Below, piece by piece: positions 44,871 to 62,808 of a stretch of 64,000 nt of DNA. The first letter of the stretch is position 1. Every line of letters begins with the position of its first letter. The stretch is taken from contig CBINON010000023.1 in assembly GCA_966252325.1 (NCBI GenBank), positions 878 to 64,877 on the forward strand. Direction: 5' to 3'. The notes under the pieces are model-generated. The model was not told where the DNA came from. It did not search any database and worked only from the letters and a program-made list of their open reading frames with translations. The DNA comes from an uncultured bacterium. GTDB taxonomy: Bacteria; Verrucomicrobiota; Verrucomicrobiia; Verrucomicrobiales; Verrucomicrobiaceae. Made by a program: the position numbers and the translations under genes.

Positions 44871-44933
44871 CGCCTTTTCGCGCTGGAAATGCCCGGCGAC
44901 CGCCGCTTAGTTGCCGTTTCACCCGTCCCGACC

Positions 44934-47123
44934 ATGGCCACCGAGAAAACCGCGTCCCTCAAAGACCTCCTCCTTGTGGGTGAGGAAAACCTGCCCGCCA
45001 CCGGCGGCTACCTGCTGCTGCCGGGACGCATGGATCTCGCCGGGGTACAGCGCCTTGAGCAGGCCCTGCAGGGTCGGAAGATCCTCTACCTCATCGAGCA
45101 GGGTGGCACCCTGTCCGAGCCGCTGCGCGCCCACCTCGAACAACCGCAGGTTCACGCCCTGGCGATCTCGCCGGACTGCAGCGATGCCGCCAGCTTCCGC
45201 CGCGCCCTCGCCGCCGAGATCGGCGAGGACACGGTCGCCGTCTTCCTGCCGGCCGAGGCCGCCTGCCTGGGCGCGCCCCTGACCACCGTGCCCGGCGTGC
45301 GCCTCGATTTCCTGGTCAAGAGCGGTTTCCCGGTCCTGCCCGCCTACCTGCTGCACTGGCGCGAGGTGATGCCGGACATCGGCCCGCGCCCGACCGAGGA
45401 CGCCGGCCTCCTGGCCCTCGGCCAGCTCATCCCGGAGGAGGACCTCAGCCTGTCGGTCTACCAGGAGCGGCTGTTCGAACTGTCCGAGGCCTGCTTCAAC
45501 CGCCATCCTCTGCTCGGGCTCAACCTTGCCTACGCCCTGCTGCTCGGCTTCAAGCGCCACGGCCGCAGCAACACGCTCATCGACGGCAAAGACGAGAAGC
45601 CCTACAGCTATGAGCTTGTCCTCGCCATGGCCATCGCCCTGTCCAAGGTGATCCGCGCGCAAACCCGGCAGGCGCGCGTCGGCATCGTCCTGCCCCCCGG
45701 CCTTGGCGGCCTGGTCGCCAACGTCGCCGTGCTGCTCGCCGGCAAGATCCCGGTCAACCTCAACTTCACCGCCGGCCGCGCCGCCGTCGAGCACGCCATC
45801 AAGGCCTCGGGCATCGACAAGCTCATCACGGCCGACATCGTCGTCCGCAAGATGCAGGCCTTCCCCTGGCCGCCGACCCGACAGCTCCTGCTCATCGAGC
45901 GCGTGCTGCCAGGCCTGAAAACAAAAATCGGGATCTGGCTGGCCCTGTCGCGCCTGCTGCCCGCGCCCGTGCTCGCCGCCGTGCTCGGTGTGCCGCGCAA
46001 GGGCGGCGACCGCGAGGCGCTGCTGCTGTTCACCAGCGGCAGTTCCGGCCATCCCAAGGGCGTTGTCCTGACCCATCGCAACCTGCTCGCCAACGTCATC
46101 CAGTTTGGCTCCCGCCTCGCCCTCGGCCGCGGCGATTCCATCCTCGGCTGCCTGCCGCTCTTCCACAGCTTCGGCTGCACGGTGACCCTCTGGTACCCGG
46201 TCATCGCCGGTCTCGACCTCGTCACCTACCCGAGCCCGCTGGAAACGAAAAAGCTCGCCGAGCTCGTGGAAAGCCACCGCATCAGCCTGATGATCGCCAC
46301 GCCCACCTTCCTGCGCGGCTGGCTGCGTGGCGTGCCGCGCGAGGCCCTGGCCAGCCTGAAACTGGTCGTCACCGGCGCCGAAAAACTGCCGCCGAGCGTG
46401 GCGGAAGCCTTTGAGCAGCGCTTCGGCAAGCGCGTGTATGAGGGCTACGGCCTGACCGAAACCGCGCCCGTGTCGAACGTCAACCTGCCCGACCCGCTGC
46501 CGCTGGGCGACGACCGCGGCGGCCACGTCTGGCTGGCCAGCCATCGGCCGGGCAGCGTCGGCCAGCTCATGCCCGGCCTGGCCGTGCGCATCACCGAGCC
46601 CGAGAGCGGCCTGCCGCAGTCGCTGCATGAAACCGGCATGATCTGGTTCCGCGGCGCCAACGTCTTCCCCGGCTACCACGAGGACCCGAAGCGCAGCGCC
46701 GAGGTCATCGACACCGAGGGCTGGTTCCGCACCGGCGACCTCGGCCGCGTCGACATCGACGGCTTCCTGCACATCGAGGGCCGGCTCAGCCGCTTCTCGA
46801 AGATCGGCGGCGAGATGGTGCCGCATGAAACCGTCGAGGAAGCGCTCATCAAGGCGCTCGGCCTGGAGAACGAGGCCTATCGCCGGGTTGCTGTCGTCGG
46901 CGTGCCCGACCCCGACAAGGGCGAGGCCCTGGTCCTGCTCAGCAGCCTGCCCGGCGGCCCCGAGGCACAGGAGATCATCGAGCTGCGCTACCGCCTGCTC
47001 GACAAGGGCCTGCCCGCGCTCTGGATTCCCAAGCGCCTGATCCGCGTCGACGACATCCCCATCCTCTCCTCCGGCAAGCTCGACGTGCAGGCCTGCGAAA
47101 AGCTGGCACGCGGGGTAGCCTGA
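44934..47123 (+). CDS. AMP-binding (acyl-ACP/acyl-CoA synthetase-like, Aas-type) enzyme with ~230-aa unassigned N-terminal domain
   Basis: The adenylate-forming core has [20 protein letters not shown] (A3 motif), YEGYGLTET (A5) and FRTGDLG (A7/A8). The N-terminal 230 aa contain no H-x4-D acyltransferase motif. Confidence 0.85.
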
Positions 47124-47151: not shown

Positions 47152-47180
47152 TTGACCCGCGGTCCAAACGGGGTTAGGCT
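47152..47180 (+). promoter_or_regulatory. candidate sigma70-type promoter for lepA
   Basis: TTGACC (47152-47157), a 17-nt spacer, then TAGGCT (47175-47180), 17 nt upstream of the lepA ATG. Sequence match only. Confidence 0.3.
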
Positions 47181-47196
47181 GAACATCCCCCAACCG

Positions 47197-48993
<1,797 letters not shown>

Positions 48994-49012
48994 GCGGGCC
49001 GCCCTTGTGCGC

Positions 49013-50014
49013 ATGAAACCCCTGCTCTTCCTGCACATCGGCACCCACAAGACGGGGTCAACCGCGATCCAGCGCGCGCTGCCGGTCGGCGGCGCCGCCG
49101 CCCTCAAGGCCGGGCTGGTCCGCCTCGACATCCATGGCGACGTCGCCCGCGCCAGCTGGACCGAGGACGACGCCCGCGCCCTGCGCGCCAGCCTCGCCGG
49201 CCAGATCGTGCCGGGCGTGAGCCGCTACCTGCTCACCTGCGAGGGCTTCAGTGGCGACCCCCTGCGCGGCTACGCCAACGCCCCGGTCGCCGCCGCCCGC
49301 CTGCGCGCCGCCACCGCCGATTTCGACGTCCGTGTCGTCGTTTTCCTGCGCCGCCAGGACGATTTCCTGGAGTCGATCTACACCCAGCTCATCCACCAGG
49401 GCGGCTCGCAGTCCTTCGACGACTTCCTGCGCAGCCTGCCGCCCGGCGGTCCCGACTGGCAGCGCCTGCTCGACACCTACGCCACTGAGTTCGGCCGCGA
49501 AAACCTCGTCGTCCGCCGCTACCACTCCGCCTTTTACCCGCGCCCGGAAAGCCTGCTGGAAGATTTCTGCGCCATCCTGGGCATCCCGACCAGCGCCCTG
49601 GTCAAGGCCGATGCCACGCCCAACCAGGGCTACTCCCACGAGGCGCAGGAACTGGCCCGGGTCTGCAACCCGCATCTCGACGACGCCGGCCGCCGGCAAC
49701 TGCGCCAGCTCCTGCAAAAGATCAGCCCGAAGCCGGTCTTCCAGAGTTACGCCTACCTCGACCTGCCCGCCCGCCGCAGCCTGCTCACCGCCTGCGCCGA
49801 GTCCAATGCGGCGGTGGCCCGCGAGTTCTTCCAAGGCGAACCGCTCTTCCCTGAACCCGAGGATGCCGCCACCACCCGCGCGAACCGCGAACCCCTGGTC
49901 GCCACCCTGGTGAAAATGCTGCTCGAACGCCAGCGCGGCTCCCGCCTGGTGCGCCTCGCCGGCAAGATCGATCGCGCCCTCGGCGGCCTGAAGCGCTCCT
50001 CCCCCCAGCCATGA
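49013..50014 (+). CDS. P-loop sulfotransferase-like protein (hypothetical)
   Basis: MKPLLFLHIGTHKTGSTAIQ resembles the 5'-PSB (PAPS-binding) loop of sulfotransferase-fold proteins, and VVFLRRQDDFLESIY resembles a 3'-PB region. ATGA overlap with the next gene. The assignment is weak. Confidence 0.55.
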   Translation: MKPLLFLHIGTHKTGSTAIQRALPVGGAAALKAGLVRLDIHGDVARASWTEDDARALRASLAGQIVPGVSRYLLTCEGFSGDPLRGYANAPVAAARLRAATADFDVRVVVFLRRQDDFLESIYTQLIHQGGSQSFDDFLRSLPPGGPDWQRLLDTYATEFGRENLVVRRYHSAFYPRPESLLEDFCAILGIPTSALVKADATPNQGYSHEAQELARVCNPHLDDAGRRQLRQLLQKISPKPVFQSYAYLDLPARRSLLTACAESNAAVAREFFQGEPLFPEPEDAATTRANREPLVATLVKMLLERQRGSRLVRLAGKIDRALGGLKRSSPQP

Positions 50015-51795
50015 CCCCCGCCGCCGCGACCGCGCCCACCGCCGGATCGCCGCCGGCGCGCACGCTGCTGGTCCACGGCGCCTTCGCCACCCAGGCCGCC
50101 CGGCGCGCCATCCGGGACTGGAAGCGCACGGTCGCCCTGGAAGTGGATCTCGCCCTGCCCGAATCCCTGCGCCGCCAGTGCGCCGCCGTGCTCACCGTGC
50201 CGCCGCTGCTGCCGGAAGCCGAGGCCGAGCAACTGCAGGAACGCGCCGAGGCGGTGCTCGATGCCTTTCTCGAGGAACGCGTCCGCCTGCCCGGGCTCGC
50301 CACCGACCGACGTTTCCGTGCCGCCTGCATGAGCATCGAGGCCTGGCGCATCGTTGTGCCGCACGTGGTCTGCCTCGAGTACGCCCGCCGCGCGCTCGCT
50401 CACGGCCCCTTCGAGCGGATCGTCGTCGCCCCGGGCGCCGGCATCAGTCAGCCGGCCTTCGAACAGCTCGCCCGCGCCCTCGGCGTGCCGCTGGAGGTGC
50501 TGCCCTTCGATCGCGAGGAGCCGCCCGTTTTCTGGATGCTCAAGCGCCGCTGGCAGCGCTTTCGCCATCGCCGCCAGGCCGCCCGTCAAGCCGCCGCCCC
50601 CGCCCGCCTGCCGGCCTCCGCGGGCGCGGGCGAACGCTGGTGCGCCGACGCCCGCCTTGAAACCCTCGTTGCGAATGAGGACAAGGCCGGCCGCTGGCAC
50701 CGCGGCCCGGGGTTTCAGGACCCCGATCCGGCGGCGCTGTCCGCCCTCACCGACCGCTACCGCGCCTGGTGGCAGGCTTGGTGGCAGGACTGGCGCAACG
50801 CCCACCCGCAGGAGGAGCCGCTCAGCGATTTCTGGATTCTCGAACGCCTGGGCGACTGGTTCAGCCGCGAACGTTACCCCCTGCACGCCCAACTGCTCGA
50901 ACAGGCGCGCGCCGCTGTCGCCACCGCACCGCCGCAGCGTGTTCTCATCGGCTCGATGCGCGGCCGCCGGGAACTGCTCTGGGGCCTCGCCGCCCAGGAG
51001 CAGGGCATTCCGGCCGCGGTGTACACGATCGACTGCCACATCGATCCGCGCCTCGTCTTCAAGCCCGACCTCGCCCTCTGCGATGACACCCGCCAGTGCG
51101 AGATCGCCGCGGCCCGGCTGGCACCGCAACAGGTGGTGCGCGTGCGCTCGCACCGGCGTCCCCCCGGCCGCGACGTCGTCGGTCCGCCGCAACCGCATGC
51201 CCGGCCGCGCCTGCTGCTCGCCGACACCTACTACTCCGGCATGGTCGCCTCGAGTTCGCCCCTGCTGAGTTTCTGGGCCTACGAACGCCTGGTCGAGGCG
51301 GCACGGGCGCTGCCCGACTGCGATTTCATCCTCAAGTTTCACCCCGTGCGCGAGCGACCGGAGGCGGTCTTCCACCTCAGCGGCCTGCACCATCTCCACC
51401 TCTGGCAGCGCGAGCGCTTCATCCGCAGCCTGCGCCCGCCCCCGAACCTGCGCCTGCTCGCCCCCGAGGCGCGCCTCTCCGACGAACTGCCGCACGCCGA
51501 CCTGCTGCTCAACATCCAGTCCTACGCCGGGCTCGAGGCCTTCGCCCTCGACATCCCGGTCATCTACCTGCAGCCCTGGGACGAGGAAGGACTGTACCCG
51601 CGCATGAACGCCCTCGGCGCCATGCGGGTCGCCACCGACACGCCGCGCCTGCTGGCCCTGATTCGCGAACTGCTCGGCGACGACAGCCAACGCCGAACCC
51701 AGCTCGAGCGCCAGCACGCCTACCTCGACTATTTCTATTCCCAGGGGCATCCCGCCTGCGCCGACGCCGCCGCGGACGCACCCGGCGGCGCTTGA
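50011..51795 (+). CDS. uncharacterised 594-aa protein, paralogue A; C-terminal GT-B-like half with K-F-H-P motif
   Basis: Collinear with the 589-aa protein at 55928-57697 (shared blocks are listed in the findings). DFILKFHPVRE lies at 51325-51357. LLLNIQSYAGLEAFALDIPVIYL resembles the nucleotide-sugar-binding helix of GT-B glycosyltransferases. Confidence 0.7.
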   Translation: MTPAAATAPTAGSPPARTLLVHGAFATQAARRAIRDWKRTVALEVDLALPESLRRQCAAVLTVPPLLPEAEAEQLQERAEAVLDAFLEERVRLPGLATDRRFRAACMSIEAWRIVVPHVVCLEYARRALAHGPFERIVVAPGAGISQPAFEQLARALGVPLEVLPFDREEPPVFWMLKRRWQRFRHRRQAARQAAAPARLPASAGAGERWCADARLETLVANEDKAGRWHRGPGFQDPDPAALSALTDRYRAWWQAWWQDWRNAHPQEEPLSDFWILERLGDWFSRERYPLHAQLLEQARAAVATAPPQRVLIGSMRGRRELLWGLAAQEQGIPAAVYTIDCHIDPRLVFKPDLALCDDTRQCEIAAARLAPQQVVRVRSHRRPPGRDVVGPPQPHARPRLLLADTYYSGMVASSSPLLSFWAYERLVEAARALPDCDFILKFHPVRERPEAVFHLSGLHHLHLWQRERFIRSLRPPPNLRLLAPEARLSDELPHADLLLNIQSYAGLEAFALDIPVIYLQPWDEEGLYPRMNALGAMRVATDTPRLLALIRELLGDDSQRRTQLERQHAYLDYFYSQGHPACADAAADAPGGA

Positions 51796-51837
51796 CGACC
51801 CGGCGTGTGCGGCTCATGCTGACGTTTTCCGCCGGGC

Positions 51838-52548
51838 ATGGCCGACCCCACTTCTTCCAGCATCCCCGACCTGCCGCCGCTGGTGATCGAAAACGGCCGC
51901 GAGCGACTGCGCGCCCTCGTCGCCCGCCAACTCGGCAGCTTCTTCGAATACCAGCCCGCGCAGGATGACGCGGCGCTCGACGCCGCCCTGGCATCCGCGC
52001 TCGACCGCGTGCGCCAGTGCTTCGGCCGCATCGTCCTCAAGCGCTACCGCCGCGATGACGGCGCCGCGGTGCTGAATCCCTTCCACTCGGGCCAGTACTG
52101 CATCTTCCTCTACTGCCTGAGCCGTGCGCTGGCCCTCTCCGGTGCGGACAGCCTGGCCGACCGCGTGTACTACCTCAACCGCGCCCTCAACGGCGTCGAC
52201 CTCTTCCATCAGGTGGAACTGCCCGAGGTCTTCTGCCTCGAGCACCCGCTCGGCGCCGTCATCGGCCGCGCCCGCATTGGCGACGGCTTTTTCTTTGCTC
52301 AGGGCGTCACCGTCGGCGGCAACAAGGGCGCCTACCCGGTGATCGGTCGCCACGTGTCGCTGCTCTCCAACTCCAAGGTCGTCGGTGCCTCGGTGCTCGG
52401 CGATCACGTCATCCTTGCCGCCAACAGCTACGTCAAGGACGCGGTCATCCCGCCGCACTCCATCGTCTTCGGCCAGGACCGTCACCTCGTCATCAAACCG
52501 AACCCCGGTGGCCTGACCACGCCGATCTTTGAGGAGGGCCTCGCATGA
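51838..52548 (+). CDS. left-handed beta-helix acyltransferase (serine O-acetyltransferase-like)
   Basis: Helical N-terminal domain followed by hexapeptide repeats (IGRARIGDGFFFAQGVTVGGNKGAYPVIGRHVSLLSNSKVVGASVLGDHVILAANSYV). Confidence 0.75.
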   Translation: MADPTSSSIPDLPPLVIENGRERLRALVARQLGSFFEYQPAQDDAALDAALASALDRVRQCFGRIVLKRYRRDDGAAVLNPFHSGQYCIFLYCLSRALALSGADSLADRVYYLNRALNGVDLFHQVELPEVFCLEHPLGAVIGRARIGDGFFFAQGVTVGGNKGAYPVIGRHVSLLSNSKVVGASVLGDHVILAANSYVKDAVIPPHSIVFGQDRHLVIKPNPGGLTTPIFEEGLA

Positions 52549-53483
52549 GCCAGCCGCGCGCCCTGATCATCGGCCTCGGTTCCATCGGCCGCCGCCACCA
52601 GACCTTGCTCACCGACCTGGGCTGCGCCGTCGCCGCCTGCACCCGCCACGCCCAGCCCGACCTGCCCTGCTTCGAGGATCTGGACGCCGCGCTGCGCGAG
52701 CACCAGCCGCAGTTCATCGTTGTCGCCAACCCGACCGCCGATCACGAGGCCACCCTGCAGCGCCTCGCCGAGCTCGCACCGGAGGCGCGCGTGCTGGTCG
52801 AAAAACCCCTGTGCAGTCACGTGCCCGCCCCCCTGCTACCCGGTCTGGCGGAGCGGATCTCGGTCGGCTACAACCTGCGCTTTCACCCCGCCGTGCTCGC
52901 CCTGCGCCAGGCGCTGCGCGACGAACAACCGGTCAGCGCCCAGCTCTACGCCGGCCAGCACCTGCCCGACTGGCGCCCCGGCCGCGACTACCGCAGCTCC
53001 TACTCGGCCTCGACCGCCAAGGGCGGCGGCGTGCTGCGCGACCTCAGCCATGAACTCGATCTCGGGCTCTGGCTCTTTGGCCCCTGGCAGCGGCTCGTCG
53101 CCCACGGCGGCCATTTCAGCGGTCTCGAGATCGAGACCGAGGACACGGTCGGCCTCTGGTGGCAGGCCGCCCGCTGCCCCAAGGTCGGCGTCGAGATCAA
53201 CTACCTCGACCGCGCCCCGCGCCGCTCGATCCTCGTGCACACCCGCCGGCACACCTGGGAGGCCGATGTGCTCGGCAGCCGCCTGCTGCGCGACGGCAGC
53301 GTCCTGGAAAGCTGGAGCCCGGAACGCAACGCCACCTACCGCGATCAGGATCGCGCCTGGCTGCGAAACGACACCGGCGTGCTCTGCACCTTTGACGAGG
53401 GCCTTGCCGTGCTGCACATGATCGCGGCCGCCGAAGCCTCCCTTCACCAGGCCGCCTGGATCCGTTCCTCCCCCTCTTCATGA
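52545..53483 (+). CDS. Gfo/Idh/MocA family oxidoreductase
   Basis: ALIIGLGSIGRRH Rossmann start and the VLVEKPLC block. ATGA overlaps with both neighbours. Confidence 0.8.
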   Translation: MSQPRALIIGLGSIGRRHQTLLTDLGCAVAACTRHAQPDLPCFEDLDAALREHQPQFIVVANPTADHEATLQRLAELAPEARVLVEKPLCSHVPAPLLPGLAERISVGYNLRFHPAVLALRQALRDEQPVSAQLYAGQHLPDWRPGRDYRSSYSASTAKGGGVLRDLSHELDLGLWLFGPWQRLVAHGGHFSGLEIETEDTVGLWWQAARCPKVGVEINYLDRAPRRSILVHTRRHTWEADVLGSRLLRDGSVLESWSPERNATYRDQDRAWLRNDTGVLCTFDEGLAVLHMIAAAEASLHQAAWIRSSPSS

Positions 53484-54190
53484 AGCACCTCATCTGCACG
53501 GTCTGCGCGCGCGGCGGCTCCAAAGGCGTGCCGGGCAAAAACACCCGACCCATGCTCGGCCAGCCGCTCATCCAGCACACCCTGCGCCAGGCGGTCGCCA
53601 GCGGCCTGTTCGACGCCGTGGTCGCCAGCAGCGACGACGAAGCCATTCTCTCCTGCGCCGCCGAAGTCCCCGGCGTGTCCACCCTGCTGCGCCCGGCCGA
53701 ACTCGCCAGCGACACCGCCGGCAAGGTGCCCGCCATCCGCCACGCCGTGCTGGAAATGGAAAAGCGACTGGGCCGCACCTGCGACATCGCCGTCGACCTC
53801 GATGTCACCTCGCCCCTGCGCGACCCGCAGGACATCCGCGACGCGGTCGCCCTGCTCATCGACGGTGTGCCCAACGTGCTCACCGCCATGCACTCGCGCC
53901 GCTCGCCCTACTTCAACCTGATCGAGCGCGGCAGCGACGGCCAGCTGCGCACCGCCAAGGAACTGCCCGGCGGCGTGCTGCGCCGCCAGGACGCGCCGCC
54001 CTGCTACGACATGAACGCCTCGATCTATGTCTGGCGCCGCGACGTGCTCGCCGCCGAGAACCGGCTCTTCCTGCCCGGCACCGCCCTGCATGTCATGCCC
54101 GAGGAACGCTCCTGGGACATCGACAGCGAGATGGACTGGGAGGTGGTGGAACTGCTCATGCGCCGCAAGCTCGAAACCTCCCGCGCATGA
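53480..54190 (+). CDS. acylneuraminate cytidylyltransferase family protein (CMP-nonulosonic acid synthetase, NeuA/LegF-like)
   Basis: ICTVCARGGSKGVPGKN (CMP-sugar synthetase P-loop), DVTSPLR and YDMNASIYVW blocks. Confidence 0.9.
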   Translation: MKHLICTVCARGGSKGVPGKNTRPMLGQPLIQHTLRQAVASGLFDAVVASSDDEAILSCAAEVPGVSTLLRPAELASDTAGKVPAIRHAVLEMEKRLGRTCDIAVDLDVTSPLRDPQDIRDAVALLIDGVPNVLTAMHSRRSPYFNLIERGSDGQLRTAKELPGGVLRRQDAPPCYDMNASIYVWRRDVLAAENRLFLPGTALHVMPEERSWDIDSEMDWEVVELLMRRKLETSRA

Positions 54191-54987
54191 AAACCCTCGC
54201 CGAACTTTCCAGTCTGAAGGGCCGCGCCGCCCTCATCACCGGTGGCGCCGGCCACCTCGGTCGCGCCATGGCCGCCGCCCTCGCCGAGCAGGGCGCCGTG
54301 GTCGCCCTGCTCGACCTCGACGCCAGCCGCGCCACCGACGCCGCCCGCGAACTCGAGGCCTCCGGCGCCCGCGCCTTGCCGCTTGCCGCCGACCTGACCA
54401 ACGCCGACGCCGCCCGCGCCGCCGTGCGTACCGCCGCCTCCGAACTCGGGGGCCTCGACATCCTCATCCATGCGGCCTCACTGGTCGGTACCGACAGCGT
54501 GCGCGGCTGGGCTGTGCCCTTCGCCGAGCAGAGCCTCGAAGCCTGGCACATGGCCCTGCGCGTCGGCCTCGATCCGGCCTTCACCCTCATCCAGGAGGCG
54601 CGCCCGCACCTCGAGGCCTCCGGCCACGGCTCAATCATCTTCGTGTCCTCGATCTACGGCCTGGTGGCTCCCGACCCCTCGCTTTACGACGGCACGCCCA
54701 TGCAGACCCCGGCCGCCTACGGCGCGGTCAAGGGCGCCCTCAACCAGCTCACCCGCCACTACGCCGCCCTGCTCGCCCCGCGCATCCGCGTCAACGCCCT
54801 GACGCCGGGCGGCATCTGGCGCGGCCAGAAGGAAACCTTTGTCGAGCGCTACACCCGCCGCACGCCCATGGGCCGCATGGGTCGCGAGGAGGATTTCAAG
54901 GGCGCCGCCGCCTTCCTGGCCAGCGATCTCTCGGCCTACGTCACCGGCCACAACCTCGTGGTCGATGGCGGCTGGACCGCCTGGTAA
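54187..54987 (+). CDS. SDR family oxidoreductase
   Basis: ITGGAGHLGRA (TGxxxGxG), NASL-type block IHAASL, catalytic YGAVKGAL (YxxxK) and PGGI. Confidence 0.9.
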   Translation: MKTLAELSSLKGRAALITGGAGHLGRAMAAALAEQGAVVALLDLDASRATDAARELEASGARALPLAADLTNADAARAAVRTAASELGGLDILIHAASLVGTDSVRGWAVPFAEQSLEAWHMALRVGLDPAFTLIQEARPHLEASGHGSIIFVSSIYGLVAPDPSLYDGTPMQTPAAYGAVKGALNQLTRHYAALLAPRIRVNALTPGGIWRGQKETFVERYTRRTPMGRMGREEDFKGAAAFLASDLSAYVTGHNLVVDGGWTAW

Positions 54988-54995
54988 AAAACGCC

Positions 54996-55931
54996 TCAGA
55001 CCGGTTCCGCCAGCAGGCTGGCGATCTCCGCCAGCGCGGCACCCGCCGGCACGGCGGACGCCGAGGGCAGTCGTTCCGAAGAATAATCAAAGGCGCTCAG
55101 CGCCCGGTGGCGCGGCGTCGGCCAGTGCCACTTCGGCGGATACACCGGCCCAAAAATCGTCAGCGCCGAGACTCCAAACGCCTGGGCCAGATGAGCGGCC
55201 GAGCCGTCGACCGCGACCACCAGACGGGCGCGACTGAGCGCATGCAGGTACTGCGGCAGGCTGGTCCGCCCCGACAGATCGATCAGGCCCGCCGGCGCCA
55301 ACTTGGTGATCTCGGCGCAATGCTGGCGCTCTTCGGGCGAACCACCGCCAGTCATCACCCAAGGCAGGCCGTCACCGGCCGAAGCCATGACCTCGGCCCA
55401 GGCCTGCGAGGTCCAGTACTTGGAAGGCCAGGCCGCCGTCGGATTGGCCAGCAGGAAGGGCCCCTCCGGCAGTTCCGGATGGCGCCAGTCGGCAGGCGGC
55501 TGCGCCAGCCGCGGCGGGGTGAAGGCTTCCGGCTCGCCGCCGAGCGCGCGCCAGAAGTACTGCGCCCAGTACTCGCGGCCAATCGGCTCGATGCGCACCT
55601 CGCGAAACAGCAGGCGATACCACCAGCGCACATGCCGCGCTTGATTGACCAGCAGGCAGCGCCGGCGCGACGGCACCCGTCGCGCGCTCCAGACCGCGCG
55701 CGTGCTCCAGCTCGTCGTCCAGGAAAGCGCCGCCCGCTCGTGCTGATCCGGGCCCCACACCGCCTGCTCCATGAGGCTGACCAGCGGCCGGAAGGCCTGC
55801 TTGACATGCAGGGCGCAGGGTCGACCCGAGCGCGCGGCCAACAGGCGGGTCACCGGCTCCAGCAGCGTGACATCGCCCAGCTGTTTGTCGCTGATCAGCG
55901 CGCACGGGCCCTCCAGTCTGGCTGCGCTCAT
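54996..55931 (-). CDS. glycosyltransferase family 9 (heptosyltransferase-like)
   Basis: 311 aa. C-terminal blocks LIDLSGRTSLPQYLHALSRARLVVAVDGSAAHLAQAFGVSALTIFGP match the GT9 (RfaF/RfaC-type) nucleotide-sugar-binding half. ATGA overlap with paralogue B upstream. Confidence 0.8.
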   Translation of the reverse strand: MSAARLEGPCALISDKQLGDVTLLEPVTRLLAARSGRPCALHVKQAFRPLVSLMEQAVWGPDQHERAALSWTTSWSTRAVWSARRVPSRRRCLLVNQARHVRWWYRLLFREVRIEPIGREYWAQYFWRALGGEPEAFTPPRLAQPPADWRHPELPEGPFLLANPTAAWPSKYWTSQAWAEVMASAGDGLPWVMTGGGSPEERQHCAEITKLAPAGLIDLSGRTSLPQYLHALSRARLVVAVDGSAAHLAQAFGVSALTIFGPVYPPKWHWPTPRHRALSAFDYSSERLPSASAVPAGAALAEIASLLAEPV

Positions 55932-57697
55932 GCTGACACCTCCCGCCCGCGCGTCAGCAGGCGATTGACGGCTTCCGTCAGGGTCTGCCGCGAGCTCCAG
56001 AAAAACTCCTGCTGATAGCGGTGCTGCGCCGCCACCTGGGCCTGCCGATGGGTGCGATCGCCAAACAAGCGTGTCAGGGCCTGGGTCAGTTCCTCGCCGC
56101 TTTCGCCCCAGGGCGGCTGCAGGCGTTGCTCGAGTTCGGGAAACAGAAAGAACTCCGGCGGATGCCGAACCAGAAAGACCACGGGCAGCCCGAGGTGAAA
56201 GGCCTCATGACCGGACACCGAGATCGTGTTGAGCAGCACTGCCGCCGACTGCATCGCCTCCTCCATCGGCTGTTCGGGTGGTGCCAGACGGACGTTCGAC
56301 GGCGGATTCAGGGAGCGCAGGTAACGGGTCTTCGATTGCACCTCGCTCTCGTCCATGCCGATGAAGCCGCGCTCCTCGCTCTTGGACGCGCGCAGCGGAT
56401 GAAACTTGATGACGAAGTCGAGCTGCGGCAGCCGTCGCGCCGCCTCGACGACGCTGCGATACTGGTACAAACAAGCCTGCGGATCGGTAATGACCGTCAT
56501 CGTGTCGGCATGCAGCACCTGCGGCCGCCGGCGCGCGAACGCGGCCTCGACCTGCTCCGGTGTGCGCGGCGGCGCGCCCGGCCGGCGATGGCCCCGCACA
56601 TCGAGAATGCGCTCAGCCGGATAACCGGCGGCAATCATGCGCGGGATGCCGCGCTGACCATCCACCAGGGCAAAGTCCGGCACGAACATGGTGCGCGGCT
56701 TGAGCAGGAAGTCGTAGGTGTAGGAAGCCACCGGAATGCCCAGGCGCGCCGCGGCCAGCGACCAGATGCCCTCCTCGGCGCCGATCTGGGTGTCGGCCAG
56801 CAGCAAGGCCGGCCGGAGTTCGCGCAGACGCGTCATGGCTTTTTCGACCAGGGCCGACCAGCGTGGGTACAGCCGCGGCACGTGATGCTCGCCCATCGCC
56901 CGATGCAGGTCGCGACAGCCAACCAGGGCGGGATCCGCGTCGAGCACCTCGGCCTGCCAGCGTCGCCACCAGTCGGCCCAGTGCGCGGTCTCCGCCGCCA
57001 GCGCCCCGGCCTCGGGTTCGCCCAGTTCGGCGGCCGTCACGGTCTGCAGACGGAAGCACGGGGCGGTCGGTTCGCGGGCCAGCAGGCGAGCGACGCGGCC
57101 GCTGGCGCAGAGCACCAGAGGCGCCTCGTCCGGGGCTGCCGGACGCGCGACCGTTTCAGCGGTCGCCGCCGCCGGCGCGCGCCGCCAGCGGCAGAGCCAG
57201 CGCTGCAGTCGGCGACGCAGGCTGCGCGGCCGCCACTCCGGTGCCAGACACTCGATGGCCAGTCCCTTTTCCGCCGCCACCTCGCGCCAGAAACCGAAGC
57301 TGACCCCGCTGCCGGCACAAACCACGAGGCGATCGAACTCGAAGCGGCTCCAGAGGTGGTCGCGCAGGGCCAGATTGAACAGCCGCATCGACATCCGGTC
57401 CTGGAACTCGCCGCCGAGCGCCGCCTTGCGCAGGTCGGCATCGCCGGGCCGGTCGCCGAGTTCCGGCCGCGGCCGCAGGTAGGGATCCATGGCCTCGGTC
57501 ATGCCTGCCAGCAGGGGCATGGCGGCGTCACGCCCGAAAATGTCGCGGGTGCTCAGCCAGGCGGCGACGCCCGGATACCGCCCGCGATCCAGCAGGGTGT
57601 CATATTCCAGCACCACCGCGCCCTCGGCGACCTCGGCCAGCCGTCGCTCCAGCGCCTGGGGCGCGAGGGAACCGGTGAGAACAAGCGTGCGGGGCAT
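55928..57697 (-). CDS. uncharacterised 589-aa protein, paralogue B of 50011-51795
   Basis: Collinear similarity to paralogue A along the full length. DFVIKFHPLRA has its KFHP codons at 56396-56407. VLLNTISVSGHEAFHLGLPVVFL is a GT-B-like helix. Confidence 0.7.
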   Translation of the reverse strand: MPRTLVLTGSLAPQALERRLAEVAEGAVVLEYDTLLDRGRYPGVAAWLSTRDIFGRDAAMPLLAGMTEAMDPYLRPRPELGDRPGDADLRKAALGGEFQDRMSMRLFNLALRDHLWSRFEFDRLVVCAGSGVSFGFWREVAAEKGLAIECLAPEWRPRSLRRRLQRWLCRWRRAPAAATAETVARPAAPDEAPLVLCASGRVARLLAREPTAPCFRLQTVTAAELGEPEAGALAAETAHWADWWRRWQAEVLDADPALVGCRDLHRAMGEHHVPRLYPRWSALVEKAMTRLRELRPALLLADTQIGAEEGIWSLAAARLGIPVASYTYDFLLKPRTMFVPDFALVDGQRGIPRMIAAGYPAERILDVRGHRRPGAPPRTPEQVEAAFARRRPQVLHADTMTVITDPQACLYQYRSVVEAARRLPQLDFVIKFHPLRASKSEERGFIGMDESEVQSKTRYLRSLNPPSNVRLAPPEQPMEEAMQSAAVLLNTISVSGHEAFHLGLPVVFLVRHPPEFFLFPELEQRLQPPWGESGEELTQALTRLFGDRTHRQAQVAAQHRYQQEFFWSSRQTLTEAVNRLLTRGREVSA

Positions 57698-57766
57698 GGG
57701 AGAGAGTTGGACAGCATGCTGAAAACCACCGGGCTCGCAACCCTGGGATGGGTGATCCGCCGACGG

Positions 57767-57795
57767 TTGACAGGCCGGGCGCGCATGGGTTATTG
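57767..57795 (+). promoter_or_regulatory. candidate promoter for the neuB-neuC-acetyltransferase operon
   Basis: Perfect TTGACA (57767-57772), a 17-nt spacer, then a weak -10 TTATTG (57790-57795). The ATG at 57805 would give an almost leaderless mRNA. Sequence match only. Confidence 0.25.
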
Positions 57796-57804
57796 CCGGG
57801 TTTC

Positions 57805-58848
57805 ATGATCGAATCCGCCGACTCCCTGGCCGAGAACACCGGCCGCTGCTTCATCATCGCTGAGGCGGGGGTGAACCACAATGGCGACCTCGCCCTCGCC
57901 CGTCAGTTGGTGATTGCCGCCGCGGCGGCCGGCGCCGATGCCGTGAAATTCCAGACCTTCCAAGCCGGCCACCTGGTCACGGCCGACGCCCCGCAGGCCG
58001 ATTACCAGGCACGCAACACGGGTCGCACCGAGAGCCAGTTCGACATGCTCAAGCGCCTGGAACTGCCGCTCGAGGCCTTCGCCGAACTCGCCGGGCTGTG
58101 CGCGGAAATGGGCATCGAATTCCTCTCGACCGCCTTCGACGAGGAGAGCGCCGACTTCCTCGCCGGCCTGGGCATGCGCTGCTTCAAGATTCCCTCCGGT
58201 GAGCTGACCAACCTGCCCTTCCTGCGCCACATCGGCGCCTTCGGTCGCCCGGTCATCGTCTCCACCGGCATGGGCACGATCGAGGAGGCGGAAACCGCGG
58301 TCGCCACCCTGCGCGAGGCCGGCAGCGGCCCGGTCACGGTGCTCCACTGCGTGACCCGCTATCCCACCCCGCCCGAGGAGGCAAACCTGCGCGCCATGCA
58401 CGTGCTGCGCCACGCGCTCGGCGTGCCGATCGGTTACTCCGACCACACCGAGGGCATCGAGGCGCCGGTGATCGCCGTCGCCGCCGGCGCCTGCGTCATC
58501 GAAAAGCATTTCACCCTCGACCGCGACCTGCCCGGCCCCGATCACAATGCCTCGCTCGAACCCGGCGAACTCGCCGAGATGGTGCACGCCATCCGCCGCG
58601 CCGAAGTCCTGCTCGGCCAGGCGCGCAAACAACCCGGTGCCGATGAACTCGCGGTCGCCCAGATCGTCCGCCGCAGCGTCGTCGCCCGCCGCGCCATCCC
58701 GGCCGGCAGCATCCTCGAACCCTCCATGCTGGTGCTGCGCCGCCCGGGCACCGGCATCCCGCCGGCGCGCCTGCACGAACTGCCGGGCAAGCGCGCCCTC
58801 GCGGACATCGCCGAGGGCGCCCTCATCCGCTGGGAGGATCTCGCATGA
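57805..58848 (+). CDS. neuB: NeuB-family nonulosonic acid synthase (LegI-like)
   Basis: FIIAEAGVNHNGDLALARQLV, DAVKFQTF, KIPSGELTN and YSDHTEG blocks, plus a C-terminal SAF domain (RRSVVARRAIPAGSIL). Start placed at the internal ATG 57805. Confidence 0.9.
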   Translation: MIESADSLAENTGRCFIIAEAGVNHNGDLALARQLVIAAAAAGADAVKFQTFQAGHLVTADAPQADYQARNTGRTESQFDMLKRLELPLEAFAELAGLCAEMGIEFLSTAFDEESADFLAGLGMRCFKIPSGELTNLPFLRHIGAFGRPVIVSTGMGTIEEAETAVATLREAGSGPVTVLHCVTRYPTPPEEANLRAMHVLRHALGVPIGYSDHTEGIEAPVIAVAAGACVIEKHFTLDRDLPGPDHNASLEPGELAEMVHAIRRAEVLLGQARKQPGADELAVAQIVRRSVVARRAIPAGSILEPSMLVLRRPGTGIPPARLHELPGKRALADIAEGALIRWEDLA

Positions 58849-59996
58849 GACGCATCGCCGTCGTCAGCACCGGCCGCTCGGACTACAGCATCTACCGGCC
58901 CCTGCTGCAGGCGATTCAGGCGCACCCGGACCTGCAACTGCAGGTGCTGGCCACCGGCATGCACCTCGACGAGCGCTTCGGCCGCACGGTCGATCTCGTG
59001 GAAAAGGACGGCTTTCCGGTCGCCGCGCGCATCCCGGTGCTGCAGGCCGACGACACCGCGCAGGGCATCGCCGCCGCCATGGCGGCCGGCGTCGCGGGTT
59101 TCGGTGCCCACTATGCAGCCGCAGCCCCCGACCTGCTGGTCGTGCTCGGCGACCGCTTTGAAATGTTCGCCGCCGCCCTGGCGGCCGTGCCCTTCAATCT
59201 GCCGATCCTGCACCTGCACGGGGGTGAACTCAGCGAGGGCGCGATGGACGACCGCTTTCGTCATGCGCTGACCAAGCTCAGCCACCTGCACGGGGTCGCC
59301 ACGGAAGTCTACCGGCGCCGCGTCATCCAGCTCGGCGAAGAACCCTGGCGCGTGCTCTACTGCGGCGCCCTCGCCCTCGACAACCTGCGCAGCCTGCGAC
59401 GGCTGACGCGCGCGGAACTCGAACAGCGCTTCGATCTCGACCTGAGCGAATCGCCCCTGCTGGTCACCCTGCACCCGACCACCAACGCCCCGGAACTCGC
59501 CGGCCCGCAAACCGAGGCCCTGCTCGAGGCGCTGCAGCAACTCGGCCTGCCCGTGGTCTTCACCATGCCCAATGCCGACACCGCCGGCAGTGTCATCCGC
59601 GCCCGCCTGCTGGAGTTCTGCCAAAACCACCGCCGCGCACGCTGGGTGGAGAACTTCGGCCCGGAAGCCTACTACTCGATGCTCGCCGAAGCGCGCGCCA
59701 TGGTGGGCAATTCTTCCAGCGGCCTGCTCGAGGCACCTTCCTTCGCCCTGCCGGTCGTCAACCTCGGCGACCGCCAGAAGGGCCGCCTGCGCGCCGCCAA
59801 CGTCATCGACGCGCCCTTCGAGCCCACGGCCATCGTCGCCGCCGTGCAGACCGCGCTGACGCCAGAGTTCAAAGCCCAGGCCGCGGGCCAGGAAAGTTTC
59901 TTTGGCGATGGCCATGCCGCCGAGCGACTCGTTGAACTGCTCGCCACCGTGCCGCTCGACGCACGCCTGCGCGACAAAACCTTCCACGATCTATGA
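58845..59996 (+). CDS. neuC: UDP/GDP-N-acetylglucosamine-type 2-epimerase (hydrolysing), NeuC/LegG-like
   Basis: MRRIAVVSTGRSDYSIYRPLL, LVVLGDRFEMF, HLHGGE and VGNSSSGLLEAP blocks of hydrolysing 2-epimerases. Confidence 0.9.
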   Translation: MRRIAVVSTGRSDYSIYRPLLQAIQAHPDLQLQVLATGMHLDERFGRTVDLVEKDGFPVAARIPVLQADDTAQGIAAAMAAGVAGFGAHYAAAAPDLLVVLGDRFEMFAAALAAVPFNLPILHLHGGELSEGAMDDRFRHALTKLSHLHGVATEVYRRRVIQLGEEPWRVLYCGALALDNLRSLRRLTRAELEQRFDLDLSESPLLVTLHPTTNAPELAGPQTEALLEALQQLGLPVVFTMPNADTAGSVIRARLLEFCQNHRRARWVENFGPEAYYSMLAEARAMVGNSSSGLLEAPSFALPVVNLGDRQKGRLRAANVIDAPFEPTAIVAAVQTALTPEFKAQAAGQESFFGDGHAAERLVELLATVPLDARLRDKTFHDL

Positions 59997-60610
59997 AATG
60001 CGTTCTCCTCGGTGCCGGCGGTCACGGACGCGTCCTGCTGGAGGCACGCCTGCCGCAGACCTTTGACGCCATTCTCGATGCCCGACCCGGCCTGCGCGAG
60101 GTCGCCGGCGTGCCCGTGCTCGGGGGCGACGACCTGCTGCCAGCTTTGGCCGCGCAGGGCTTCAGCCATTTCGTCGTCGGTGTCGGCTCGACCGCTGACA
60201 CCACGGCGCGCGCAAACCTGTTCCGCGCCGCGGTCGCCGCCGGTCTGGCCCCGCTCGCTGTGCTGCATCCCAGCGCCTGGATCTCGCCCTCCGCCCGTCT
60301 CGGCGAGGGTTGCCAGGTGCTGGCGCGGGCCGTCGTCAACACCGGCGCTGTGCTGAGCGACCATGTGCTGGTCAACACCGCCGCCGTGGTGGAGCATGAC
60401 TGCGAGATCGGCGACCACGTCCACCTGGCCAGCGGCGCCCTGCTCTGCGGCGGCGTGCGCGTCGGTGCCGGCGCGCACATTGGCGCCGGGGCCGTCATCC
60501 GCCAGGGCCTCCGCCTTGGCGACGGTGCCCTGGTCGGCGCGGGTGCCGTCGTGGTGCGCGACGTGCCCGCCGGTGCCCGCGTGGCCGGGGTGCCGGCCCG
60601 CCCGCTCTGA
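59993..60610 (+). CDS. NeuD/PglB/VioB family sugar N-acetyltransferase (LegH-like)
   Basis: Rossmann-like N-terminus MKCVLLGAGGHGRV, followed by hexapeptide repeats (VEHDCEIGDHVHLASGALLCGGVRVGAGAHIGAGAVI). Confidence 0.85.
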   Translation: MKCVLLGAGGHGRVLLEARLPQTFDAILDARPGLREVAGVPVLGGDDLLPALAAQGFSHFVVGVGSTADTTARANLFRAAVAAGLAPLAVLHPSAWISPSARLGEGCQVLARAVVNTGAVLSDHVLVNTAAVVEHDCEIGDHVHLASGALLCGGVRVGAGAHIGAGAVIRQGLRLGDGALVGAGAVVVRDVPAGARVAGVPARPL

Positions 60611-60695
60611 GCCCGGCCCACCCCGCAATTTCAGCAATTCGAATTTGTCATTGCCCCCTCCCCGTGGCACCGCCTTTCCTGCCCTGCGACCCGTC

Positions 60696-61742
60696 ATGAC
60701 GTCGAAACCCGTGAGCCAACTCTGCCTGCCGCCCGACGGCACGCTGTGGGACGCCCTGCGCGTGATCGACCAGGGCGCCTGCGGCATCTGCCTGCTGGTC
60801 GATCCGCAGCAGCACCTGCTCGGCACGGTGACCGATGGCGACATCCGCCGCGCCCTGCTCAAGGGCGCCACCCTGCAGGACCGCGTCCAGCCGCACGCGC
60901 ACACCGCCTTCACCAGCGTCCACGTGCGCACCCCGCGCGCCGAAGTGCTCGACCTCATGCAGGCCCGGCAAATCCATCAGGTGCCGATCGTCGACGACGA
61001 GGGCCGCCTGAAGGGCCTGCACCTGCTGCACGAGATCATCGGCTCGGCCCCGCGCCCCAACTGGGCGGTGATCATGGCCGGCGGCAAGGGCACCCGCCTT
61101 GGCGAACTCACCCGCAGCACGCCCAAACCGATGCTCAAGGTCGCCGGCCGCCCGATCCTCGAGCGCCTGGTCCTGCACCTGGTCGGCTCCGGCATCCGCC
61201 GCATCTTCATCTCGACGAACTACCTCGCCGGCCAGATCGAGGAACACTTCGGCGATGGCACCCGCTTCGGCTGCCGGATCGAGTACCTGCGCGAGCAGCC
61301 CGAGGAACCACTCGGCACCGGCGGCTCGCTCGCCCTGCTGCCGGAAGCGCCGACCGATCCGGTCTTTGTCTGCAACGGCGACCTCGTCACCCAGGTCGAC
61401 ATCGCCGGCCTGCTCGAGTTCCACCGCGAGGGCGGGCAGCTCGCCACCATCGGCGTGCGCGGCTACACCCACGAGATCCCCTTCGGCTGCCTCGAAGTCA
61501 GCGACGGCCGGGTGCTCAGCCTCGTCGAAAAACCGGCGCTCTCCCAGCTCATCAACGCCGGCATCTACGTGCTCGAACCGGCCCTGGTCGCGCGCGTGCC
61601 GCGCCGGCACTTCCCCATCACCGAACTCTTCGAACAGGCCCTCAGTCAGGGCGATCCGGTCGGCGCCTTCGAGATTGCCGACGAATGGATCGACGTCGGC
61701 CAGCGCGAACAACTCAAACAGGCGCGCGGCGGCGCGCAATGA
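60696..61742 (+). CDS. CBS-domain nucleotidyltransferase (PtmE-like sugar-1-phosphate nucleotidylyltransferase)
   Basis: From MTSKPVSQL. A tandem CBS pair (GTVTDGDIRRALL, HQVPIVDDEGRLKGL) is followed by IMAGGKGTRLGELT...PKPML (NTP_transferase G-loop). The track ORF start 60363 overlaps the acetyltransferase in another frame. Confidence 0.85.
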   Translation: MTSKPVSQLCLPPDGTLWDALRVIDQGACGICLLVDPQQHLLGTVTDGDIRRALLKGATLQDRVQPHAHTAFTSVHVRTPRAEVLDLMQARQIHQVPIVDDEGRLKGLHLLHEIIGSAPRPNWAVIMAGGKGTRLGELTRSTPKPMLKVAGRPILERLVLHLVGSGIRRIFISTNYLAGQIEEHFGDGTRFGCRIEYLREQPEEPLGTGGSLALLPEAPTDPVFVCNGDLVTQVDIAGLLEFHREGGQLATIGVRGYTHEIPFGCLEVSDGRVLSLVEKPALSQLINAGIYVLEPALVARVPRRHFPITELFEQALSQGDPVGAFEIADEWIDVGQREQLKQARGGAQ

Positions 61743-62737
61743 CACCACCCATGGGAACTTTCACTGGCAAAAACGTCTTCGTCACCGGTGCCGGTGGCTT
61801 CATCGGCAGCCACCTCGCCGAACACCTCGTCCGCGAGGGCGCCAAGGTGCGCGCCATGGTCCACTACAACGCCCTCGGCAAGCGCGGCTGGCTCGATCAC
61901 TCCGAGCTGGCCGGCGAGATGGAAATCCTTGCCGGCGACATCACCGACCGCGACAGCGTGCGCGCCGGCGTGCGCGGCTGCGACACGGTCTTCCACCTCG
62001 CCGCGCTGATCGCCATCCCCTACTCCTACCAGGCGCCGCGCAGCTACGTGCGCACCAACGTCGAGGGCACCCTCAACGTCCTGCAGGCCGCCCTCGAGGA
62101 GGGCGCGCGCCGGGTCCTGCACACCTCCACCAGCGAGGTCTACGGAACCGCCCGCTTTGTGCCCATCACCGAGGAACACCCGCTGCAGGGTCAGTCGCCC
62201 TACTCCGCCTCGAAGATCGGTGCCGACAAGATGGCCGAGGCCTTCGCCGCCTCCTACGAGCTGGAGGTCGTCACCGTCCGCCCCTTCAACACCTTCGGCC
62301 CGCGCCAGAGCCTGCGCGCGGTCATCCCGACCATCATCAGCCAGTGCCTGCGCGGCGACGAGGTGAAGCTCGGCGCCGTCCACCCGACGCGCGACCTCAA
62401 CTACGTGCAGAACACCGTCGAGGGTTTCTGCGCCGCGGCGCTCAGCCCCGCTGCCGCCGGCGAGGTCATCAACTTCGGCTCCGGCCGCGAAATCAGCGTC
62501 GGCGATCTCGCCGTGCTCATCGGCCGCCTGCTCGGCAAGGAGATCCGCATCCTCTGCGAACAGGAGCGCCTGCGCCCGGAAAAGAGCGAGGTCGAGCGCC
62601 TGCTCGCCTGCAACGCCAGGGCCAAGGCCCTGCTCAACTGGGAACCGCGCGTCAGCCTCGAACAGGGGCTGGAAAAAACCCTCGCCTGGCTGCAGCAGAA
62701 CGTCGAGCACTACCAGGCCAAGGGGTATGTGGTCTAA
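61739..62737 (+). CDS. legB: NAD-dependent sugar-nucleotide 4,6-dehydratase (LegB-like extended SDR)
   Basis: VFVTGAGGFIGSHL, STSEVYG and catalytic YSASK. ATGA overlap with the preceding stop (alternative start 61751). Confidence 0.85.
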   Translation: MTPPMGTFTGKNVFVTGAGGFIGSHLAEHLVREGAKVRAMVHYNALGKRGWLDHSELAGEMEILAGDITDRDSVRAGVRGCDTVFHLAALIAIPYSYQAPRSYVRTNVEGTLNVLQAALEEGARRVLHTSTSEVYGTARFVPITEEHPLQGQSPYSASKIGADKMAEAFAASYELEVVTVRPFNTFGPRQSLRAVIPTIISQCLRGDEVKLGAVHPTRDLNYVQNTVEGFCAAALSPAAAGEVINFGSGREISVGDLAVLIGRLLGKEIRILCEQERLRPEKSEVERLLACNARAKALLNWEPRVSLEQGLEKTLAWLQQNVEHYQAKGYVV

Positions 62738-62748
62738 CCGCGGACCCT

Positions 62749-62778
62749 GTTTCAAGTTTAAGGTTTAAAGTTTCAAGT
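62749..62778. repeat. 7-bp tandem repeat GTTTCAA GTTTAAG GTTTAAA GTTTCAA in the legB-legC spacer
   Basis: Read directly. Four heptamers in perfect register form the most AT-rich stretch of the locus, 31 nt upstream of the legC ATG. Confidence 0.85.
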
Positions 62779-62808
62779 CCGGCGCGGCAGCGTCACTCGT
62801 CCTTTCCC

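Follow-up and report, generated by a model that had tools for sequence, protein, structure and literature searches.

The window analysed here is a stretch of 64,000 nucleotides from an uncultured member of the Verrucomicrobiaceae (contig CBINON010000023.1). Its subject is a pair of probable glycosyltransferase genes, here called A and B, which lie in a gene cluster for nonulosonic acid synthesis (Table 1). The cluster is found downstream of lepA (47152-48993) and comprises three transcription units in plus, minus and plus orientation. Gene A belongs to the first unit, where it is preceded by the gene p335 and followed by four genes spanning 51838-54987 (+); B and a gene of glycosyltransferase family GT9 form the second unit; and the third is a nonulosonate synthesis operon at 57748-63987 (+). 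As judged from domain assignments, the locus encodes a complete legionaminic-acid-type pathway leading to a sugar activated with cytidine monophosphate (CMP), which we take to follow the guanosine diphosphate (GDP)-sugar route in line with what is established for Campylobacter. The preliminary description had placed A and B beside a GT9 gene and a complete CMP-nonulosonate pathway without a recognizable sialyltransferase, and Pfam and NCBIfam agree with this; neither names another candidate nonulosonate transferase in the locus. The two reading frames were recovered exactly as first described in position, strand and length. Both have the codon composition of coding sequence, as expressed by the G+C content at third codon positions (GC3, Table 1), in a window with ~69% GC.

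A and B are paralogous over their full length. BLASTP aligns 579 residues with 30% identity (score 459, expect value E = 6e-54), collinearly from residues 17 and 3 to residues 576 and 566 of A and B, respectively, so the likeness is far past chance. All shared blocks that had been listed from the translations fall inside this alignment, the motif coordinates being checked by translation: TLLVHGAF/TLVLTGSL, a Trp-rich helix, GIPAAVYT/GIPVASYT, VRSHRRP/VRGHRRP, DFILKFHP/DFVIKFHP, IRSLRPPPNLRL/LRSLNPPSNVRL and LLLNIQSYAGLEAF/VLLNTISVSGHEAF. B has the same architecture and the same invariant motif residues as A. At the level of the clades to which the two genes belong, identity is 26%.

The proteins were initially thought to match no family that could be named. 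This holds insofar as no curated model passes its threshold, but there are sub-threshold matches to DUF6716 (PF20471), NF046086 ('BFO_1060 family glycosyltransferase') and TIGR04396. DUF6716 gives 25.5 bits with A and 16.7 bits with B (cut-off 27), and is matched at E ≤ 0.01 by 15 of the 26 family members considered, which are A, B and 24 orthologues from both clades, with three intermediate sequences. Some orthologues carry a precomputed PF20471.5 annotation. The DUF6716 match to A is confined to ~100 C-lobe residues (model positions 195-284 of 342), and the family is itself an uncharacterized 'putative glycosyltransferase'. NF046086 is matched below threshold by 25 of the 26 members, from both clades, with a best E of 8e-9. 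No member matches Capsule_synth (PF05159), Glyphos_transf (PF04464) or Epimerase_2 (PF02350) in Pfam at E ≤ 0.01, or sialyltransferase models such as PF07388; a weak match to wecB was found in one. When A, B and the family profile were searched against PDB sequences, nothing significant was found, the only marginal match of the profile being Escherichia coli WecB (E = 0.38), and the TIGR04396 profile likewise detected no solved relative among PDB sequences.

The relation to TIGR04396 became clear from a profile-profile comparison. Comparison of the family profile by hhalign with a profile made from an alignment of 28 TIGR04396 proteins gave a match of 278 columns with a probability of 98.4% (E = 4e-15), in which residues 293-589 of the A/B family align with TIGR04396 positions 42-374 at an identity of ~19%. 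Control comparisons with profiles of orthologues of locus genes, from shallow alignments of 7, 18 and 9 sequences, gave 1.4% (NeuC), 2.0% (GT9) and 1.9% (NeuB). Since NeuC and GT9 are both GT-B proteins and yet reach 2% at most, the TIGR04396 match is not a generic GT-B resemblance. On these profiles, the homology of residues ~293-594 to the TIGR04396/BFO_1060 family is a specific one.

Searched by word index among 5.8 billion proteins, A and B gave 20 and 31 clusters, respectively. When the profile was run exhaustively against 1.84 billion representatives, 38 proteins reached E ≤ 1e-30 and 343 reached E ≤ 1e-3; by this measure of sequence similarity the core family is small, with 38 representatives. 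Of 78 distant relatives, 70 match the BFO_1060 model and 59 match TIGR04396; the other models hit are Epimerase_2 (28 proteins), Capsule_synth (KpsC/S; 19), DUF6716 (18), Glyphos_transf (TagF; 8) and polyST (1). The family profile also found, at E = 1.6e-6 in the 1.84 billion proteins, a true member of both the BFO_1060 and TIGR04396 families (P0188; 253 and 184 bits). Literature searches with DUF6716, TIGR04396, LIC12162 and Verrucomicrobia plus legionaminic acid yielded nothing on the A/B family.

The AlphaFold2 model of A, computed from the 26-sequence alignment, has a predicted local distance difference test score (pLDDT) of 93.0 and a predicted template modelling score (pTM) of 0.91. Foldseek comparison with the PDB gave 134 matches at E ≤ 1e-3, the best at E = 7.6e-9, with a target TM-score of ~0.5. 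The modelled fold of A is GT-B, without a close solved structure. GT-B features had been expected in the C-terminal half of the proteins; the fold agrees with this, but the homologous module (~293-594) takes in most of both lobes of the related enzymes rather than a C-terminal half alone. Profile and structure matches point to glycosyltransferases.

The N-terminal part, modelled on its own (residues 12-292; pLDDT 91.5, pTM 0.79), is an α/β domain with long helices. Its identification with a known domain was rejected, as Foldseek found nothing in the PDB at E ≤ 1e-3 (best 0.046). Likewise rejected was an internal duplication on the pattern of the KpsC dual modules, in which the N-terminal half would be a degenerate copy of the C-terminal one (hhalign 2%). 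The invariant residues of the N-terminal half in the 26 sequences are G23, E44, R103, G142, G144, R179 and R215. A transmembrane segment is predicted neither in A or B nor in the related enzymes of Tannerella forsythia (PMC5420450). The domain does contain a cationic amphipathic helix (B residues 157-175, charge +8, hydrophobic moment µH 0.74; A equivalent 173-193) and a Trp-rich helix (A ~240-264) in which W253, W254 and W257 are nearly invariant. These helices hint at peripheral binding to the membrane.

In the catalytic module D341, D358, R382, K442, H444, P445, R447, N479, P485, E486, S504, E509, P516 and V517 are invariant in the 26 sequences and H381 is nearly so. All invariant residues are kept in both A and B, which gives neither of them the look of an inactive copy. 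The conservation anticipated for the histidine of the K-x-H-P block extends to both clades and beyond, as H444 is invariant in the 78 distant relatives too. (K/R)XHP is described as the CMP-binding motif of sialyltransferases (GT29/38/42/52/80) and retaining 3-deoxy-D-manno-octulosonate (Kdo) transferases (GT99/107), in which the basic residue contacts cytosine and the proline stacks on it (PMC12887879). The KFHP block of the A/B family is aligned by hhalign with K-P-H-P of TIGR04396, in which H241 and P242 are invariant, so that K442, H444 and P445 of A have direct counterparts there; the E-A-(F/W) glutamate E509 pairs with E286, the N-lobe acid D341 with E81, and R382 with R134, all three partners being invariant. 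Two sites are among the fixed differences between the clades. The loop that leaves the first of the aligned N-lobe strands reads G314-S315-M316 in A and D-T-Q in B, and position 359, next to a candidate catalytic base, is D in A and G in B. Such differences would fit different acceptor or linkage specificities of the two paralogues.

The gene neighbourhood was examined in a genome scan covering one genome per species (185,579 species). It found 28 loci, all in Verrucomicrobiaceae or unclassified Verrucomicrobia, the nearest being 93% identical to the window, which on this basis comes from a Prosthecobacter-like organism; both clades are present in at least 13 genomes. Carriers are metagenome-assembled genomes (MAGs) of Prosthecobacter and Brevifollis and the strain Brevifollis gellanilyticus NBRC 108608, which has the A/GT9/B trio on contig BKAG01000010. 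Adjacency of B and GT9 is nearly universal among the loci, and that of A and the upstream gene p335 occurs in many. The trio has neuB and a CTP_transf_3 gene as neighbours in the window, as well as in L004, L006, L010, L025, L032, L040 and L041. Brevifollis, L040 and L041 have B first, then GT9 and then an A-like gene, all co-directional and directly adjoining neuB and a cytidylyltransferase gene. L041 (2548-13255) is without NeuC and has a 481-residue GNAT acetyltransferase and PseB/PseC-like genes, a gene set that looks pseudaminic acid (Pse)-type. With the trio found beside legionaminic acid (Leg)-type and apparent Pse-type pathways, it seems tied to nonulosonate synthesis generally and not to one sugar. 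Distant relatives of ~600 residues with the same N-terminal domain also occur among nonulosonate genes: P0077 directly after NeuB, P0080 (an Anaerolineae MAG) immediately behind the genes for a cytidylyltransferase and NeuB, with a Wzt-type ABC transporter ATPase encoded in the same locus, and P0076 among PtmE-like, amidotransferase, dehydratase and aminotransferase genes. The orthologues thus mostly adjoin neuB and a CMP-transferase gene, as do distant relatives in other lineages.

Two further features of these neighbourhoods were observed. In L004, a Verrucomicrobiota MAG, there are two CTP_transf_3 genes (14697-15413 and 17040-17780), 33% and 74% identical to the single one of the window, which suggests that two different sugars are activated with CMP, and possibly that each paralogue has a donor of its own. 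Beside the trio of L006 (14577-16703), L031 (14548-16674) and L040 (14886-17012) lies a gene for a 708-residue Antibiotic_NAT/DUF4910/DUF2172 fusion, followed by one for a 387-residue methyltransferase; these proteins probably modify sugar N-acyl groups.

The homology, predicted fold, motif conservation and gene linkage suggest that A and B are probably GT-B glycosyltransferases with a CMP-nonulosonate donor, forming a distant and enlarged branch of the BFO_1060/TIGR04396 family and working with GT9 on one surface glycan. The candidacy as ulosonic acid transferases put forward earlier is thereby supported in silico, and none of the three kinds of refuting evidence named with it (matches to a non-glycosyltransferase family, loss of the HP histidine, orthologues mostly in genomes without a nonulosonic acid synthase) came to light. 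A and B would transfer the CMP-activated legionaminic-acid-type sugar made by the locus onto a growing surface glycan. By analogy with sialyl- and Kdo-transferases, the C-lobe would bind CMP, with K442 and P445 contacting the cytosine and H444 contacting and protonating the phosphate leaving group. E486 or E509, together with S504, could hold the ribose and phosphate, and an invariant acidic residue of the N-lobe, D358 or D341, could activate the hydroxyl group of the acceptor within the interlobe cleft. The ~290-residue N-terminal domain may serve in anchoring to the cytoplasmic face of the membrane or in acceptor recognition.

The acceptor is probably a lipid-linked glycan, such as a lipopolysaccharide (LPS) core, an O-chain or a capsule-like polymer, of which A, B and GT9 would add consecutive or alternative residues; A and B may differ in acceptor or linkage. 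A lipid-linked acceptor is favoured because Prosthecobacter and Brevifollis are described as non-motile and non-flagellated and because GT9 enzymes typically act on LPS cores. Flagellin glycosylation of the Maf or FlmG type was also considered and set aside, as no Maf or FlmG-like gene was recognized among the genes scanned (30781-63987).

The closest parallel is provided by the TIGR04396/NF046086 enzymes of T. forsythia, Tanf_01245 and TFUB4_00887, whose orthologue in strain FDC 92A2 is BFO_1060 (PMC5420450). Knock-outs of these genes lose the terminal Pse or Leg derivative of the S-layer O-glycan (PMC5420450). Like A and B, these enzymes have the homologous GT-B module with its aligned residues and are encoded beside CMP-nonulosonate synthesis genes. 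They differ in length (~445-450 residues versus 589-594), since the N-terminal domain occurs only in A and B and the first ~40 residues of the N-lobe only in TIGR04396; in an invariant T-E-G, which is T-x-D in A and B; and in lacking the arrangement of A and B as a paralogue pair with a GT9 partner.

Several observations weigh against the assignment as CMP-nonulosonate transferases. A and B score far below the cut-offs of the families to which they are related: NF046086 gives 31.6 bits with A and 14.2 bits with B (cut-off 200), and TIGR04396 gives 22.6 bits with A (cut-off 125). The recognizable proteins among the 50 best Foldseek matches are GT-B proteins, chiefly UDP-GlcNAc 2-epimerases and also GT1, GT4, MurG and OGT, and no title among these 50 names a sialyl-, Kdo- or TagF-type enzyme. 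The strict D/E-D/E-G motif is missing, as no [DE][DE]G is conserved in the 26 sequences; the nearest counterpart is L-x-D358-(D/G), of which the clade A form is C-D-D-T and the clade B form V/A-D-G. In one MAG (L007/L012) A and p335 stand among non-glycan genes, and in L027, L029 and L031 the trio is accompanied by genes for sugar modification, with no neuB visible within the flanks. CMP-Kdo is available in any Gram-negative cell as an alternative donor. Finally, the T. forsythia precedent is genetic only, and the transferase role of A and B is itself an in silico prediction.

Sialyltransferases (GT38 polysialyltransferase, GT52, GT80; PMC2169525, PMC12887879) resemble A and B in their GT-B fold, the (K/R)XHP motif, the expected CMP-ulosonate donor and a candidate base, namely an acidic residue with which an N-lobe strand ends. 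They differ in having D/E-D/E-G, and they are connected to A and B neither by a Pfam match nor by a titled entry in the Foldseek top 50. KpsC/KpsS-type Kdo or Pse transferases (GT107, GT99, GT140, and KpsS1, which is GT118) and TagF-like enzymes belong to the same broad clan of HP-motif GT-B proteins using cytidine-nucleotide donors. The A/B family is bridged to PF05159, PF04464 and the KpsC and TagF structures through distant relatives and not through a direct match from the 26 members.

In view of this clan membership, a different donor can be considered. A and B would then be CMP- or CDP-dependent transferases of the same clan that use CMP-Kdo (as KpsC/KpsS-like β-Kdo transferases) or a cytidine diphosphate (CDP)-polyol (as TagF-like enzymes), and would build the linker or polymer to which other enzymes add sugars. 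The Capsule_synth, Glyphos_transf and polyST matches among the 78 distant relatives would agree with this, as would the UniRef name of the Brevifollis orthologue, 'Capsule polysaccharide biosynthesis protein' (merely 'glycosyltransferase' in RefSeq), and the one MAG in which A and p335 are away from nonulosonate genes. A mixed profile of distant relatives also reaches Cps3D (a TagF-like polymerase; 1.2e-12), KpsC (7.6e-10), TarL and TagF in the PDB. However, this profile is heterogeneous and includes GT4 and epimerase-like proteins, so these matches are not specific to the A/B family. Moreover, the members themselves match the BFO_1060 model but not PF05159 or PF04464, the only cytidylyltransferase of the locus is of the CTP_transf_3 type with no gene for CDP-glycerol or CDP-ribitol synthesis recognized by Pfam or NCBIfam, and the trio is linked to neuB across two apparent pathway types. 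We consider a different donor unlikely.

A second alternative, rather less probable still, is a sub-case of CMP-nonulosonate transfer: A and B could be processive polymerases that make a nonulosonate homopolymer or alternating polymer on a primer made by GT9, as polysialyltransferases do or as in the poly-legionaminic O-chain of Legionella. The fixed differences in the clefts of the two paralogues could yield two linkages in alternation, in the manner of KpsC with its dual modules (PMC12887879). Polymerases occur in the clan (Cps3D, TarL, TagF, polyST), and the Wzt-type ATPase of the P0080 locus is typical of polymers completed in the cytoplasm. On the other hand, no Wzt/Wzm, KpsMT or Wzx/Wzy was recognized in the Pfam-scanned genes of 30781-63987, and sequence features do not separate single-addition from processive enzymes.

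That A and B are instead GT-B-fold nucleotide-sugar 2-epimerases or hydrolase-like enzymes acting on a pathway intermediate is very improbable: it would accord with the best Foldseek matches (E ~1e-8), the marginal WecB match, the Epimerase_2 matches of distant relatives and the His-Pro and S-G-G-x-x-E-A elements that epimerases also carry at equivalent places, but it is rejected by the NeuC profile control when set against TIGR04396, by the failure of all 26 members to pass Epimerase_2 with a weak wecB match in just one, by TM-scores to epimerases of only ~0.5, and by a pathway that has its own 2-epimerase in NeuC and is otherwise complete.

To our knowledge, the Leg and Pse transferases described so far are the flagellin-modifying Maf and FlmG, KpsS1 (GT118) and those defined by genetics in T. 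forsythia. Enzymes that transfer these sugars are few and poorly understood (PMC5420450). As CMP-nonulosonate transferases, A and B would represent a second branch of distinct architecture, whose two paralogues probably have different acceptors or linkages. The novelty lies in this architecture, in the pairing of paralogues with a GT9 partner and in the lineage; the expected chemistry is already known in kind. If the assignment is right, there would be a wider choice of enzymes for making Leg and Pse glycosides chemoenzymatically, and K442, H444, P445, D341, D358, E486, S504 and E509 would be structure-function leads for the whole TIGR04396 class. The locus also points to nonulosonate-decorated surface glycans in freshwater Verrucomicrobiaceae. 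A more far-reaching proposal is tentative, and we think it more doubtful than the assignment itself. It holds that A and B constitute a new glycosyltransferase family, in which a BFO_1060-like module is joined to a previously unseen N-terminal α/β domain that chooses the acceptor, and that A, B and GT9 act as a dedicated module of three enzymes, possibly as a membrane complex, which builds a di- or alternating-nonulosonate motif on a lipid-linked glycan of non-flagellated Verrucomicrobia.

Table 1. Genes, domains and motifs of the A/B locus, with positions in the window
Feature	Position	Strand	Basis and remarks
p335	49007-50014	+	335-residue orphan; ATGA overlap of its stop with the start of A
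Paralogue A	50011-51795	+	594-residue reading frame; GC3 0.88; candidate CMP-nonulosonate glycosyltransferase
A residues 1-292, accessory N-terminal α/β domain	50011-50886	+	modelled separately
A residues 293-594, module homologous to TIGR04396/BFO_1060	50887-51795	+	hhalign, 278 columns
A P352-Q362 (PDLALCDDTRQ), end of N-lobe strand with invariant D358, candidate general base	51064-51096	+	translation; putative role
A K442-F-H444-P445, (K/R)XHP motif, predicted CMP (cytosine/phosphate) binding site	51334-51345	+	translation; invariance
A S504-I518 (SYAGLEAFALDIPVI), predicted C-lobe loop and helix binding nucleotide ribose/phosphate	51520-51564	+	S504, E509, P516 and V517 invariant
Hexapeptide acetyltransferase	51838-52548	+	Pfam/NCBIfam
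GFO/IDH/MocA oxidoreductase	52545-53483	+	Pfam/NCBIfam
CTP_transf_3, CMP-nonulosonate-type cytidylyltransferase (PseF/NeuA-like)	53480-54190	+	Pfam/NCBIfam
Short-chain dehydrogenase/reductase (SDR)	54187-54987	+	Pfam/NCBIfam
Divergent GT9 (heptosyltransferase-like)	54996-55931	-	PF01075, 61.6 bits; ATGA overlap of B stop with GT9 start
Paralogue B	55928-57697	-	589-residue reading frame; GC3 0.83; candidate second CMP-nonulosonate glycosyltransferase
B K431-F-H433-P434, (K/R)XHP motif	56396-56407	-	translation
NeuB/LegI-type synthase	57748-58848	+	TIGR03569, 449.7 bits
NeuC/LegG-type hydrolysing 2-epimerase	58845-59996	+	TIGR03568, 419.6 bits
PglD-like N-acetyltransferase	59993-60610	+	Pfam
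CBS-nucleotidyltransferase	within 60363-61742	+	Pfam
4,6-Dehydratase	~61770-62737	+	Pfam
DegT aminotransferase	~62850 to window end (runs off window)	+	Pfam

The overlaps given in Table 1 indicate that p335 is translationally coupled to A, and GT9 to B. The p335 protein has no match in Pfam, NCBIfam or the PDB, and its N-terminal segment reads HIGTHKTGST, which bears at most a loose resemblance to motifs of the P-loop or sulfotransferase type. Together with A it is syntenic in many Verrucomicrobiaceae loci at 48-95% identity, even away from sugar genes (L007). B and the NeuB-type gene are divergent, and the longest neuB reading frame begins 50 bp from the start of B (57697-57810). Since the NeuB domain begins at residue 34 of that frame, the real start codon and the extent of a shared promoter region are uncertain.

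Some genes upstream of the cluster also deserve mention. Between an ABC sugar-type permease and lepA, at 44889-47123 (+), lies a gene for a 744-residue AMP-binding enzyme with an N-terminal extension of ~227 residues in which no domain was matched. About 11 kb upstream of the nonulosonate locus, 36185-38092 (-) encodes a 635-residue protein with an SMP-30/gluconolactonase (SGL) domain and a BNR_2 sialidase-like β-propeller, which is kept at the same place in the close relative L002. It is followed at 38200-42465 (+) by a gene for a 1421-residue protein whose domains are Big_9, cadherin-like, BACON and He_PIG; it presumably resides at the cell surface and could be a target of glycosylation. In L002 the homologues of 36185-38092 and 42595-43578 are adjacent, so the gene for the 1421-residue protein is absent there. 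On the other side of the SGL/BNR_2 gene, 33605-36181 (+) encodes an 858-residue Ser/Thr protein kinase, the C-terminal part of which is a long TPR region.

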